This document shows positions 1 to 6,000 of a DNA stretch of 11,837 nucleotides, piece after piece (the first letter of the stretch is position 1; every line of letters begins with the position of its first letter). Source of the stretch: a virus. Its lineage: Duplodnaviria > Heunggongvirae > Uroviricota > Caudoviricetes. The position numbers were made by a program. The stretch lies in IMG/VR virus record IMGVR_UViG_647533159_000005. One strand, 5' to 3'.

Positions 1-3000
1 ATGGCACGAAAAACCACCCCACTAACTATTACGGAGATCAAAAACGCACGACCAGGGGAAAAGGAATATACCCTGCAGGATGGCGGAGGATTATTTCTTC
101 TGGTGAAGCCCTCCGGATCAAAAATCTGGCGTTTTACGTACTACCGCCCTGCAGATAAAAAACGGACTATTATCAGCCTTGGATCGCTAAATGATGTTTC
201 CCTGTCTGATGCCAGAGAGCGACGGAATGAATACAGGTCACTCATAGCAAAGGGAACTGACCCACAGGACTACGAACGCCGGAAACGTGAAGCAGAGAGC
301 AGGAAAAAGGGCAACACGTTCGAAAAAGTTGCCTCGGACTGGTACGAGATGAAAAAAGGCCAGAATCTGGCTTACAACACGATTAAGGATATCTGGCGAT
401 CCCTGGAAAAATACGTATTCCCGTACATCGGAAACACGCCAATAGATACCCTCACCGCTCGCCGCTTTGTTGAGATACTCACACCCATTAAAGCACGCGG
501 CAACCTGGAAACTCTGAAACGCGTTTTACAACGCATCAATGAAGTGATGGATTTTGCTGCCAACAGTGGGCTGATTGACATCAACACCGCCGCGAACGTC
601 CGCAAGGCATTCCCCTCACCCACCAAAAAGCACATGCCAACCATCCGACCGGAACAGCTACCGCAGCTAATGCACGATTTATCGGTCGCCAGCATAGAAC
701 GGCAAACCAGATTGCTGATTGAGTGGCAACTGCTGACCGTAGCACGCCCAGCCGAAGCAGCCGCCGCACGCTGGGAAGAAATAGATCTCGATGCCGAAAC
801 ATGGACGATTCCAGCCGGACGCATGAAGATGCGCCGTGACCATGTGATCCCTCTTTGCGGTCAGGCGATGGCTGTACTGGAAACAATGAAGCCAATCAGC
901 GCACACAGGGAACATGTTTTTCCCAGCCTTAAAAATCCAATGCTGCCAATGAGCAGCCAGACCGCTAACGCTGCATTGCGCCGGATGGGATACGCTGGTG
1001 TGCTGGTGTCTCACGGATTACGCGCCATATTCAGTACAGCAGCGAACGAGGAAGGATTCGAGCCGGACGTAATCGAGGCCGCACTCGCACACGTGGACAC
1101 GAACGAGGTAAGGCGGGCATATAACCGAAGTAACTACCTGGAAAAGCGCGTGGTGCTTATGCGCTGGTGGGGGGAATTTGTAGAGGCCGCAGCTACCGGA
1201 GTGACCATAGCCAGTGGTAAAAGGGGTATCCGTGCCGTGTAACTGTACAAAAAACCAGTAAAAGCGATGCAAACCATGCTAAACCATCGTATAATCGCCA
1301 CAACCCACCCAATACAGAGAGGAGTCACCCAAATCATGAAATTCAAGGAGCTATCCAGGTGTTTTTCAATGAAAAGGTATCCCCTGCTTGCGGCGAAGGG
1401 CTGCAACTGGCGTTAATGGCAAATCGTGAATTCTGGTCAACATACGATCCGGAAGACAAATCAACAGCCCCCACAAAACACGAGGTAGTCAGTTTTTTGC
1501 GCTCGCGTGGTGCATCGAAAAATCTGGCTGAAAGCATCGACAAGGTGCTGAGGCCCACCAGCCTTAAATGCGGTGGGCGACCTAAGAAGTGGAAACGGTA
1601 ATCACAATAGCGGCCCTTTGCGGTCGCTATTTTTTTTGCAGAAAGAAAAGCGTAATCAATGAGATAAAAAACAGTGGGTACCGTTTTATAAACGGTGGGT
1701 ACTGTTTTTCCCGCCCTGCCCTGTTTTACCGTATTTATCACCGGAATACGCCGGATTAACGAGGTAAAACATAGTGGAAACAATCAGAAAAATACTTACC
1801 CGTCAGGAAGTAAAAAATATTCTGCGCATCAAGGCAGACAGTTCGCTACAGGACATGATCAACGCCGGAAAATTCCCGAAAGGCTTCAAAATCGGTCTGC
1901 GTCGTGTTGGCTGGTATGAAGATGAAGTGCTGGCCTGGCTGAAAGAGCGCGAGGAAGAAGCGCGCGGAACGGCTGCGTAATGGTGTGAGGCGTAACGCGA
2001 TGAACATAACAAAAAGCGCCCCGTTGCCGGAGCACCCTTGCGAACAATTAACCTGCTGCGAAAAAAATGGATCAGTGCAGGGGAATTATATCAACCGTGT
2101 GGCGAAGCGCCACAATTGCCGGATAACAGGCAAAACAAAGGCCACCCGCTACGGTGGCCCCTCGACACAAGCTACACGTTATCCCCAACGCATGAGCATA
2201 GCCAACAATGCCACATTTGCGGCTGGTGGGCAATGTGATCAGTGTGCTGGCTTGCTGGTGGGCTATTCCTGCTCTTTAGTATCGCCATGCTGCGATGTTT
2301 TCCAGGCATGCGATCCCATTTTTGTGCGCCTGTACTCTTTAAGGAACTTTTCAAGGACAAACGCACATGGCGCGAATCTTTCCTGTTCATGTTCTCTTAC
2401 CGCGTTTTTGCGTTGTTTTTTCCTGGATGAGGATAATTTCTTTAATGATTTGTCAGTCATCGTAGATACCTGTAACCCTGTGCGCCACAGTTCACCGCAC
2501 CACGGCGCTGGTGATGGTTACTCCTGCTCTTTGGCCTTGCGCCGCTGGCGGCGTTTGATCTCGCCTTCTAATGCTGCTGTTACAAACTGCCCTGTACTTT
2601 CGCCTTCTTCTTTGACCTTATCCATTGCATCAACGATATGGAGTGGGACACGTGCATCTATTCTTTTCGATTTTGCATTTACTGATTTCGTTGCCATCTC
2701 TGATTTCCGATTGGTTTGGTGTCCGACAATGATAGCGATAAAAAAGATTAATGCAATGCTTGACGTGTCCCACACCATTAAAATAATATGTGTCCGACAC
2801 TTGATTTTTATCAGTAATGAAACGACGAAACCCCGCACTGTTGGAGCAGTAACGGGGCTTCTAACCAAACCGTTAACTGGAGTAACGATTATGGCTGTAA
2901 GACAGCATACCCCACGACTTGCGCACACACAAACGGCCTTTGTGTGGCGTTTTCTGGCACTGAGTGCCGGAGAATCTCAAATCGTCCACGTAACCGCCTG

Positions 3001-6000
3001 GACGGAACGCGAAGCGCGTAACCGTTGCCCGTCCGGTTGTGTCGCTGTATTCGCCGCCCGTATTCGTCAGGAGGTGCGCCATGATTAACCTGTCACTTAC
3101 CGACCTTAACCGCATTCAGTTTCGTGAGAAATTCACCGGGCAGCTACTGGTCAATGTGGATAAAGGTCGCGTGGTGTGTAATTACCACCTGCCAGATGAA
3201 GCAATTGTCGCAACAAGGGAATCATTACAGGAACTCGCAGAACGTGCCGGAATGATTAACGCGAATATTCAGGGGGTGAGACATGTGCAATAACACCCGT
3301 CCGGACGCAGCTGCCGAAGCTATCAGAACGCTGATGCACGCGCTGATTGATATTTCATGCACGGCAGCAACCGCAGAAAAACACATTACCAGAGAGCCGG
3401 AATATACAGGGGCGATAATCCCGCATTCGCTGGCTTACGCACAGCTTACCGCTGATATGGCGCTGAATGAGGCTAAAGCCATCCTGATTGCTGATTGTGA
3501 AAATGGCGGGGGCGATTATGCGAAATAAACATGATATTGAAGACCTGGCATTTGAAGCCCTGCACTCTGCGAAAAAAATCAGGGAAGTCGTCAATATGTG
3601 GATGAACAGCCTTAGCACCGATAAATCCGATAGCAGAGAAGAAATTCTTATTTCTTTGTTGTTAGACCTGGCAAATACACAGGTTTCTCTGACATCTGAT
3701 ATTGAGCTCGCCGCTAAAAAGCTGCCTCTGGAGTAAAAAAACATGAAAAAGAAAAATTCTGGCTTTACTGCCAGCGGCCCCGCTCGGCCTGAAATCCGCC
3801 CCGACGATATTTTCAAAGATAAATACGGCGGACGAATAACGATAAAAACCGTTGACGATTTTCGTGTGACTTATATCCGCGAAGGTTATGCGCATCCCTG
3901 CGTGTCGTCTCATATGCGCTTTGAGAGTGAATTCACCCTGGTAAGCAAAGCACCACCAGCGAACTTAAGCGACATCGACAGAATCATGCGCGTTACAGGT
4001 ATGGAACGCATTAAGGCAGTACGTGAAATTATTCGTGAACGGGGAAAGGCAAAATGAAACTGGCACCGAACGTAAAACTGTTACCGAAAGATAAAGGCGA
4101 GGATGCAGTGATTTTTGCGGGGGATGACGCATACAGCCATGCAGAGCATTACATGCAGGGCGGAGAAGCCAGAAAGCGCGGCGACAAAATACCACCTGTT
4201 TATCTCGGACGGCGTGACCTGGGTAATCTGGAAAACCTGCGTATTGTGGATGAGGGTCGGTCACGCGCCATCGTCAGACGTGCCGGAAAACTGGATGACA
4301 AACTGGCGCTACAGATTGAAACCCTGCTGGCAGTGGCTGGTGTTAAAGAAGCCTGTTTTTGTGACGAGAACGGCGATTTACTGGAGGACTGGACACCACA
4401 GCTTGCCCGACTGAAAGACGAATACGAGCGCGGGGAAAGTCTGGTGTTGCCCTTAAAGAAAAAAGCCACAGGAAGCTATAGCGATGATGAATTAAAGCCC
4501 CGCGTTGAAAGCCGCGCCGATGGTGTTTTCTGGGTAACGCCAAAAGTTGACAAGCAGTCAGGCGAAATTATCCGGCCTGAGACGTGGTTATGTTCCCCGC
4601 TTGAACTACTGGGAACGGGGACAATCGGTAAAGAGCATTACCGCGTGATGCGCTGGAAAAAGCCACACAATTTCACGAATACAGCACCGGAAAGGCGCAC
4701 GCAGACGCGTTAAAAGATGCCTGGACAGAAAATCACGGGGCGGCGGGTCGTGAATGGGTTAAATGGCTGGCAGACCACCAGCAGGAGGCAAAGGACACGG
4801 TAAGGTCATGCCGTGAACGGTGGCGCAACCTGATACCGGAGAGCTACGGCGAGCAGGTACACCGCGTGGGTGAGCGTTTCGCCATACTGGAGGCCGCGCT
4901 TGTGCTTTCCGGTCATGTTACTGGCTGGGATGAGCAGGAATGCCGCGATGCCATTCAGCATAATTTTAATGCCTGGGTGAAGGAATTCGGCACGGGTAAC
5001 AGGGAGTTTAAACAGATGGTTGAACAGGCAGAGGCTTTTTTAGCGTCGTTCGGATTCAGCAGATACCTTCCGTGGCCCAACACCGACGAGCGTGATTTAC
5101 CGATTAAAGAGCTTGCCGGATACAGAAAGGGGAGTATCAGAAACGAAGATGACGAGTTTCGTTTTTACACGTTCCCGCATGTATTTGAGGGTGAGATAGC
5201 ACAGGGATTTAATCCGTCTCACTTTGCCCGCGCGTTGAGTGCTGCCGGAATGCTGGAAGCGGGTAACGATCGCCGTTACAAGAAAAAGGCGCTCGGCAGG
5301 ATTGGGGGGAAGCAGCATGTTTTTTACGTGCTGATGTTCCAGCCAGAAAGCGAAGAAGATTAATTTTTTCTCGCGTGTAGGGTGAAAATTTTGCGGGTTA
5401 TGCGGGTTATTTCTGTGGATAAATCAGTATCCATATGATTATTAAAGGAATGACAGGAAAATCGTAACCCGCAAAATACCAAAAATAACCCGCAAAACGG
5501 CAGTTATAACCCGCAAAAGTGCGATTATAACCCGCAGAATTTCACAGTATAGGGTGTAAACAAGCGTAACTATCAACGTTAAAACCGGAGAACAGACAGC
5601 ATGACAGCACAGATAGCGGCTTACGGGCGGCTGGTGGCTGACCCGCAGTTAAAGACCACCAGCAAAGGGACACAAATGGCGATGGCGAGTATGGCGGTTC
5701 CCCTGCCGTGCAACCAGGCCGATGACGGAACGGCGACGATGTGGTTATCCGTCCTAGCGTTTGGCAGACAGGCCGACGCACTGGCAAAGCACCACAAAGG
5801 CGAACTCGTGAGCGTGGCGGGTAACATGCAGGTAAGCCAGTGGACAGGCCAGAACGGCGAAACGCGGCAGGGCTGGCAGGTCATCGCAGACAGCGTAATC
5901 AGTGCGCGAACGGCGCGACCGGGCGGCAAAAAAGGTCAACAGGGCCAGGCTACTGACGCACTGAACAGGGCAAAACAACAGGCGGGAAATGATGACCCGT

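Follow-up and report, generated by a model that had tools for sequence, protein, structure and literature searches.

The window analysed here is the whole of an 11,837-nucleotide (nt) stretch of viral DNA (IMG/VR record IMGVR_UViG_647533159_000005; class Caudoviricetes), and our subject is a run of five small genes, g1 to g5, at 2891-4057 on its plus strand. These genes form the replication-zone cassette of a phage-inducible chromosomal island (PICI) and follow the icd/kil scheme of phage P1 and satellite P4, without the antisense RNA that defines the scheme and with a leader that is absent from Rfam. With moderate confidence, we propose that all five lie at the promoter end of an early operon covering the replication zone of an enterobacterial satellite of the PICI type, and that translation of g1 would gate expression of the rest.

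All five of these small, overlapping frames are genuine genes. The operon's first translated gene, g1 (2891-3088; 65 amino acids, aa), encodes a protein of the Icd/Kil family; g2 (3081-3293; 70 aa) and g3 (3283-3528; 81 aa) fall in the uncharacterised families phrog_340 and phrog_5146; g4 (3518-3736; 72 aa, with an alternative ATG at 3503) belongs to a rare helical family; and g5 (3743-4057; 104 aa) is a DUF4222 protein. The junctions are tight: g1 and g2 overlap by 8 nt (ATGATTAA), g2/g3 and g3/g4 by 11 nt each, a 6-nt gap separates g4 from g5, and the stop codon of g5 shares 4 nt (ATGA) with the start of the next open reading frame (ORF), the replicase, at 4054. All five starts are ATG, and each is preceded at 5-9 nt by a Shine-Dalgarno (SD)-like site of the GGAG, AGGAGG or GGGGG type; overlapping or abutting stop-start junctions with such a site before each ATG are the layout of a coupled operon. 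Together the ORFs cover 99.5% of 2891-4057, and coverage of at least 90% by ORFs of at least 60 aa arose in none of 1000 dinucleotide-preserving shuffles; five or more ORFs of that length appeared in 5 of the 1000. The ORF listing, the sequence and the shuffles therefore agree with the initial annotation, which had described five overlapping genes of these lengths, each with its own SD. Its further claim, an operon of five, holds as a co-directional coupled cassette and not as a five-gene unit: because g5 overlaps the replicase start and no plus-strand intrinsic terminator is predicted between 2947 and 5700, the original unit very probably included the replicase.

Evidence from other genomes leads to the same conclusion. 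The genes were already in RefSeq as hypothetical proteins, and the same five coding sequences are annotated by RefSeq/PGAP in E. coli ETEC1749, whose sequence agrees with window positions 2700-4100 at 98.5% identity. All five proteins match PHROG families, and the frames are conserved in homologous islands. Measured against diverged copies by the Nei-Gojobori method, the ratio of non-synonymous to synonymous substitution rates (dN/dS) is 0.18-0.6 for g1, 0.30 for g2, 0.19-0.48 for g3, 0.29 for g4 and 0.18-0.49 for g5; purifying selection acts on all of them. It is thus barely credible that some or all of the ORFs are chance frames or calls on the wrong strand. Such doubts could attach to g4, whose relatives are scarce (13 clusters at 85% identity or more, and 9 matches among 1.84 billion representatives), and to an 80-aa minus-strand ORF antisense to g1 (2873-3115) that matches phrog_4106 with E 1.9e-40. 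They are answered by family or homologue support and dN/dS below 1 for every one of the five, by an ORF coverage that the shuffles never reached, and, in the case of g4, by a 50%-identical relative (P0254), likewise of 72 aa, directly 3' of a g3-like gene in another island (locus L027; related loci are numbered with the prefix L). The antisense ORF was rejected as a gene, its frame being interrupted in diverged islands, and phrog_4106 probably collects wrong-strand gene calls; no other antisense ORF within 2891-4057 has a family match.

By its profile matches, g1 is a relative of P1 Icd and P4 Kil. It scores 62.8 bits (E 2.2e-17) against NCBIfam NF033153 (phage_ICD_like), for which the cut-off is 25, bearing out the earlier suggestion of an Icd-like first gene, and it matches phrog_29966, phrog_1743 and phrog_6196. 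The match to phrog_1743 (E 9e-23) spans profile positions 1-69, the same positions that are matched by residues 132-196 of P4 Eta, the Kil part of that protein (E 1e-20). P1 Icd also has a match to phrog_1743 (E 5e-6), and the family that it defines, phrog_1426, is matched by g1 with E 2.4e-5. In an alignment of g1, P4 Kil, P1 Icd and five island homologues (A5), the proteins have in common the pattern F-x-W-R-F ... T-E-x-E-A-R ... F-A-x-R, and g1 is 33% identical to P1 Icd. Since direct BLASTP of g1 against the P4 eta/kil ORF was not significant, it is these shared profiles that link g1 to Kil. A tblastn search with g1 of 50,697 phage records returned one match, in a 16.5-kb 'induced prophage'. 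Searches of PDB sequences with phmmer and hmmsearch gave no meaningful match for g1 or the Icd/Kil alignment, nor for g5 and the YlcI-type protein described below.

The beginning of the g1 frame has a composition of its own. In each of the 19 Icd/Kil ORFs analysed, codons 4-18 are rich in C and poor in G (mean C 34%, G 15%), and the starts of P4 kil and P1 icd have a like composition (36% and 16%). In the window this tract occupies 2900-2945, and its composition is compatible with what would be expected of a Rho loading site. A terminator-like hairpin inside g1 (2926-2946; CACACAAACGGCCTTTGTGTG then GCGTTTTCTG) was considered as a conserved attenuator and rejected because it is seen only in close relatives, namely the window, L024 and L025.

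Upstream of g1, the promoter region (2719-2799, plus strand) combines a sigma70-like promoter with three operator-like direct repeats. The promoter consists of TTGACG at 2760-2765, a spacer of 16-18 nt, and AATAAT or TAATAT ending at 2787 or 2789, with 10 of 12 consensus matches; at 2760-2787 it is the only strong plus-strand candidate upstream of g1, and its -35 element is kept in four loci. Direct repeats of the form GTGTCC(G/C)ACA flank and overlap it at 2719-2728, 2765-2774 and 2790-2799, with an inverted copy at 2643-2651. In L002, which has a different YlcI allele, the repeats at the same places read GTGGGCCACAC, and in other islands distinct repeats surround the -10 element. This pattern suggests that the repeats are operators for an island-specific DNA-binding protein. 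The obvious candidate for a repressor of the operon promoter is the product of the divergent YlcI/YnfO-family gene (2518-2694, minus strand; 58 aa), which matches NF041551 with E 1.4e-16 and phrog_949 with E 5e-19.

Between the promoter and g1 lies a structured leader (2830-2887, plus strand) that is kept across genera. It comprises hairpin 1 (2830-2858), a single-stranded tail, UCUAACCA (2860-2867; also given as the UCUNACCA tail), and hairpin 2 (2871-2887), the loop of which contains the g1 SD, GGAG (2879-2882). Pair counts with RNAalifold on 13 sequences found 95.7% of cells paired, against 27-40% when the partners were slid, with 5 compensatory pairs; with 90 distinct sequences the values were 92.9% against 27-46%, with 9 covarying pairs. 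All five pairs of hairpin 2 covary, and this hairpin lies outside the pattern used to fish for additional sequences. The covariance model built on the leader finds one match per island (L001-L109), directly 5' of every Icd/Kil-like gene, and a pattern scan of IMG/VR gave at least 120 matches, mostly, among the matches listed, on contigs of 7-17 kb. No Rfam family matched the leader, and a search within the window for a trans-complementary partner found nothing convincing. A covarying structured leader followed by an icd/kil ORF with overlapping downstream junctions is the arrangement of P1/P4-type immunity regions.

We propose the following sequence of events. The sigma70-like promoter, ringed by island-specific repeats and facing the YlcI/YnfO gene, would give rise to a transcript that opens with the two-hairpin leader. 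Ribosomes would load at the g1 SD in the loop of hairpin 2, cover the C-rich, G-poor start of the ORF and pass across each overlapping stop/start junction to the next gene until they reach the replicase, keeping the RNA protected. Were g1 left untranslated, the naked RNA would be terminated by Rho-type polarity, and g2-g5 and the replicase would stay off. We infer that g1 translation is the gate from the homology of the first gene and from the identity of layout with P4 and P1. In this scheme, g2-g4 would fill the slot taken by epsilon, orf151 and cnr in P4 and by ant in P1.

The two model systems resemble the window in different ways. The P4 operon runs CI RNA, kil, epsilon, orf151, cnr and alpha; kil is reportedly the first gene translated after PLE and is said to be nested in frame in eta, and translation of the kil region reportedly prevents Rho-dependent termination at timm (summarised in PMC10111431). 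The likeness to the window extends to a 65-aa Icd/Kil protein as first gene (same PHROG, same profile positions), to a C-rich, G-poor ORF start, to a structured leader followed by a kil-type gene, several small genes and a primase-type replicase, and to an alpA/vis homologue just upstream, with a long ORF in the kil frame, in the position of eta, beginning right after it. Unlike P4, the window has no detected C4/CI RNA or seqA/a1b1 motifs, its replicase is of the DUF927 type and broken, a divergent YlcI/YnfO gene and operator-like repeats accompany its promoter, and its island is PICI-like (SSB, ProQ, PerC, Nu1-like TerS). The small proteins also differ: epsilon belongs to phrog_10016/3688, orf151 to phrog_10748 and cnr to phrog_5991, whereas g2-g5 belong to phrog_340, phrog_5146/2512, phrog_2196 and phrog_285, with no family in common with the three P4 proteins. 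The P4 genes psu, sid and delta do not appear in the RefSeq annotation of the closest relative, the window itself not having been scanned with those profiles. The P1 record gives the order promoter, c4 RNA, icd, ant, with icd overlapping ant1 and carrying the note 'apparently required for expression of ant'. As in P1 immI, the Icd-family ORF in the window comes first after a regulatory RNA region and overlaps the next gene (by ATGA in P1, by ATGATTAA in the window). In contrast to the window, P1 has a C4 RNA with annotated a and b target sites, to which nothing comparable was detected, and encodes an anti-repressor downstream, where the window has four uncharacterised small proteins and a replicase; g1 is moreover a distant relative of P1 Icd, as the identity and the phrog_1426 match given above indicate.

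By analogy with these relatives, the Icd/Kil product would probably arrest cell division or growth during induction: overexpression of P4 kil reportedly kills cells, P1 Icd is said to block division, and the P1 record calls Icd an 'inhibitor of cell division'. The same properties speak for an explanation that we regard as doubtful, in which the cassette and the replicase are a phage-triggered growth-arrest module resembling abortive infection, induced by a protein of an incoming phage and stopping the cell through Icd/Kil and the small proteins. A prophage-encoded locus of E. coli ECOR61 that is triggered by a phage accessory protein behaves in this way (Silas et al., bioRxiv 10.1101/2023.04.06.535777). 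There, transposon suppressors of death triggered by the phage gene mapped to an Icd-like gene and two of its neighbors, six linked genes including a primase were all needed to reconstitute the effect, and the effect was lost without the Icd-like gene. This requirement for an Icd-like gene and five linked genes, primase among them, also fits our gated-operon model as an analogy. However, a long N-terminal extension sets the Icd-like protein of ECOR61 apart, and its locus is likened to the window by description only. Further points against a growth-arrest module are that PADLOC defence models match none of g1-g5 at E <= 0.1, that the replicase needed in ECOR61 is broken in the window, and that uncontrolled PICI replication by itself also results in growth arrest on induction (PMC6092414).

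The layout is not peculiar to the window. With the primase as anchor, the comparison covered twenty loci from other Enterobacterales, to which several E. coli islands were added; all of these contain chains of small plus-strand ORFs with junctions of -4, -8 or -11 nt that run into the replication gene. The leader covariance model collected 99 loci, in 81 of which the chain is traceable to a replicase of at least 350 aa. These 81 satellite-type chains consist of promoter, two-hairpin leader, icd/kil, coupled small genes and replicase, with 2-7 small genes and mostly 3-4. Junctions of -8 nt (123), -4 nt (93) and -11 nt (18) dominate. Many of the cassette proteins terminate in ...HA* or ...HD* (window 3081-3088 and corresponding junctions in L001-L109) because the codons CAT-GCN/GAT-TAA contain the ATG of the next gene, which accounts for the very frequent 8-nt overlap; such a standardised junction may ease the shuffling of cassette genes. 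Behind the cassette, the replication gene encodes a DUF927 primase, a D5_N/DUF5906 primase or a RepA-family helicase.

The individual families vary far more than the layout. Counted by BLASTP at 1e-3, the g1 (Icd/Kil) family occurs in 56 of the 81 chains and the g5 (DUF4222) family in 49, followed by the families of g3 (18), g2 (17) and g4 (5). In related islands g2-g4 are shuffled, fused or missing; L027, for example, has the order g1, a 292-aa gene, g3, g4, a g2-like gene and g5. Of 5426 complete E. coli genomes, 1159 match some part of the cassette, but at least 80% of it is matched in only 2. It is a mosaic taken from a common pool.

The initial annotation had recognised none of the genes beyond a possible Icd-like first one. 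Profile and structure searches have now placed g1 in Icd/Kil and g5 in DUF4222; they leave g2-g4 with uncharacterised PHROGs and generic folds, and neither Pfam nor NCBIfam matches any of these three. The match of g2 to phrog_340 has E 5.6e-23, and relatives with 46% and 33% identity occur in Cedecea and Serratia islands, its presence being variable between islands. For g3, the match to phrog_5146 has E 1.7e-26 (families 5146/2512), and its relatives form 164 clusters, all 'hypothetical'. An AlphaFold2 (AF2) model of g3 is an antiparallel two-helix hairpin (helices 9-37 and 39-73; pLDDT 83); its best Foldseek matches, ATP-synthase c subunits and histidine-kinase DHp helices, all had E > 0.1 and were set aside as generic. 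The match of g4 to phrog_2196 is weak (E 1e-4). More distant g4 relatives (27-32% identity) lie immediately 5' of DUF4222 in L025 and L028; in L027, a 66-aa gene comes between P0254 and the DUF4222 gene. Fusions and duplications hint that the small cassette proteins act together: L008 encodes a g3+g2 fusion as one 152-aa protein (4207-4665), L025 a fusion of g3 to another cassette protein (145 aa; 5271-5708) and L006 a tandem g2 (117 aa; 4340-4693). We infer that g2-g4 are satellite-specific accessory proteins from a shuffling pool, and assign no biochemical role to g2-g5.

Position invites a more specific proposal for these genes. Because P4 epsilon and P1 ant occupy the same slot, one or more of g2-g4 might be directed at the helper, either as anti-repressors (like P4 epsilon and P1 Ant) or as helper-interference proteins, and the case for this rests on where the genes stand: directly 3' of icd/kil and coupled to it, as are P4 epsilon/orf151 and P1 ant1/2. 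We consider the proposal rather unlikely. It would accord with a slot whose gene content is highly variable, shuffled and fused between islands, as expected of genes matched to a helper, and with the apparent satellite specificity of g2 and g3, neither of which has a tblastn match in the 50,697 phage records. On the other side, g2-g4 have no PHROG family in common with epsilon, orf151 or cnr and contain no Pfam or NCBIfam anti-repressor domain; dN/dS values of 0.2-0.5 denote ordinary purifying selection, with no signature of an arms race; and PMC6092414 attributes induction of E. coli PICIs to activation of AlpA by the helper, not to an anti-repressor of the satellite.

Of the replicase's partners, the last gene, g5, is the most constant, and it probably has a supporting or regulatory role there. 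It matches Pfam PF13973 (DUF4222) over residues 16-67 with 64.3 bits and E 7.6e-18 (gathering score 27) and phrog_285 with E 5e-16, and all 120 of its relatives among the matches listed have PF13973. The predicted fold is a barrel of the SH3/Tudor/KOW type (residues ~23-68) followed by two C-terminal helices. Whether g5, possibly together with g3 and g4, belongs to the replication accessory proteins (loaders, origin-binding partners or copy-number regulators), as Cnr does for P4 alpha, is a tentative suggestion to which we give some weight, though not the greater part. DUF4222 is the commonest cassette member after Icd/Kil, its gene usually overlaps the replicase start by ATGA, and it takes the place that cnr (ORF106) has in P4, just before alpha. 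A g4-type gene usually stands just 5' of the DUF4222 gene; six E. coli-type islands are arranged in this way, L027 with one gene in between. In a structure search, the g5 barrel resembled the partner-binding Tudor/KOW domains of UvrD/PcrA, CarD and Spt5, a likeness of a generic kind. BLASTP of g5 against P4 cnr gave no alignment. In the literature, DUF4222 and 'Icd-like' appear in gene lists only, the ECOR61 study excepted.

The surroundings of the cassette, judged by gene content, are those of a defective derivative of a PICI-type phage-satellite island from an Escherichia-like genome. Integrase and alpA lie at one end and are transcribed inwards, as in Gram-negative PICIs: a tyrosine integrase ORF (int; 1-1242) corresponds to the integrase annotated in L028, and alpA (1774-1980, plus strand; PF05930 Phage_AlpA E 4.5e-8; phrog_66) is of the regulator/excisionase type. 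Profile matches identify SSB at 5601-6023. The RefSeq annotation of a relative adds ProQ/FinO, PerC, a Nu1-like small terminase, an F4-type fimbrial subunit and a second PerC; in the window, the ProQ/FinO, two PerC-like, Nu1-like and F4 genes fall within 6060-6868, 8056-8658, 9188-9988 and 11529-11837. The lambda Nu1-like small terminase has a weak PADLOC match to mad1 (E 4e-5), and the F4 (K88)-type subunit gene stands alone, without usher or chaperone genes. The satellite context assumed in the initial annotation is thus borne out by int, alpA, a primase remnant, SSB, ProQ/FinO, PerC and Nu1-like TerS.

The replication gene is a different matter. The cassette does lie directly 5' of it, as had been claimed, but the gene is a pseudogene. 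Two plus-strand ORFs, a 219-aa N-terminal one (4054-4713) and a 165-aa C-terminal one (4866-5363), are the remnants of a DUF927 primase of ~706 aa, matching positions 239-398 and 739-894 of the 895 in the phrog_1139 profile. By blastn against the intact copies of L001 and L028, the gene has lost 814 bp between 15-nt direct repeats, with the junction at 4651-4665, and is also frameshifted; it does not encode the functional primase of a Gram-negative PICI. The deletion leaves this copy of the island unable to replicate. The primase is intact in L001, L002 and L028.

No complete E. coli genome contains the whole window. The best match, MB06102 (76% coverage, 93% identity), has its island beside tRNA-Pro, between yejM and yejO, with the primase intact. 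The closest relatives of the cassette are in islands with capsid, protease and portal genes inside a prophage terL (L001 5558-19401, L002 3374-14808); a capsid-forming, helper-embedded type of PICI is described in PMC10111431. Gram-negative PICIs such as EcCICFT073 and EcCIEDL933 (PMC6092414, PMC10111431, PMC10085698) begin, like the window, with int, alpA and a regulatory zone, followed by a replication zone (primase, SSB) and a late or accessory zone; unlike them, the window copy has lost its replicase. In the passages of PMC6092414 and PMC10111431 that were consulted, the stretch of the cassette is treated as hypothetical genes or as 'Bro'/'Replication' zones, with no mention of an Icd-like gene, DUF4222, a small-gene cassette, the Icd/Kil homology or the leader.

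Several points weigh against the gated early operon that we propose. Both Rho dependence and translational coupling are drawn from the sequence and from P4 and P1. Hairpin 1 of the leader is partly constrained by the pattern with which the extra sequences were fished, and the leader alignment (A6) was fitted to the model; because the folding energy of the window's own leader is unexceptional (z = -1.36), it is covariation that supports the structure. C4/CI RNA (RF01695) and the target motifs (RF03163, isrK-like) were found neither in the window at E <= 1, nor in 2740-2960 at E <= 10, nor in 11 related loci at the gathering score, yet the same search in P4 recovered C4 (74.9 bits), isrK and c4-a1b1; with no C4-type RNA, the trans-acting factor of the gate is missing from the model. 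The proteins encoded by g2-g5 are without informative homologues and their fold matches are generic, and in some loci (L011, L013, L018) DUF4222 does not border the replicase. Finally, the island cannot replicate and the cassette may be decaying, although its ORFs are intact.

A long ORF upstream bears on how the gate might be overridden. This candidate (1985-3088, plus strand; 367 codons from GTG 1985, 362 from ATG 2000) shares the frame of g1, begins 4 nt past the alpA stop codon, runs through promoter and leader, and is antisense both to YlcI/YnfO and to a 65-aa gene of phrog_21027 (2263-2460, minus strand). In 63 of 97 loci the Icd/Kil frame extends upstream without a stop for 100 codons or more; the other two frames do so in 2 and 10 loci. 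The long ORF has no family match beyond ~45 aa upstream of the g1 Met, and in most relatives it is the minus-strand genes that PGAP calls, L024 being annotated instead with a plus-strand protein of 263 aa. It may encode a real protein, stay open so that ribosomes can pass, or be a side effect of the genes on the other strand.

These features can be assembled into a bolder proposal, which we put forward as an unlikely one: enterobacterial PICIs may use a variant of the P4/P1-type immunity switch that does without C4/CI antisense RNA and in which the uncatalogued leader presents or hides the icd/kil ribosome-binding site. The in-frame ORF next to alpA would let ribosomes on AlpA-activated transcripts cross the leader and override the block, like P4 eta, and, antisense to YlcI/YnfO as it is, might be kept open mainly for their transit. 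Behind the gate, g2-g4 would be effectors directed at helper or host, and the ProQ/FinO-type or YlcI-type protein of the island would be the missing trans-acting regulator.

For the window itself, the message is modest: it contains real genes in a replication-dead island. PICIs are, however, very common in Enterobacteriaceae, and how those of Gram-negative bacteria are silenced and switched on is only partly known. The cassette offers handles on this switch in its Icd/Kil first gene, its conserved leader, and the island-specific promoter repeats beside a divergent gene. It also defines a pool of families, those of g2, g3, g4 and DUF4222, that travel with satellite replicases and are reasonable candidates for manipulation of the helper, arrest of host growth, or control of replication.

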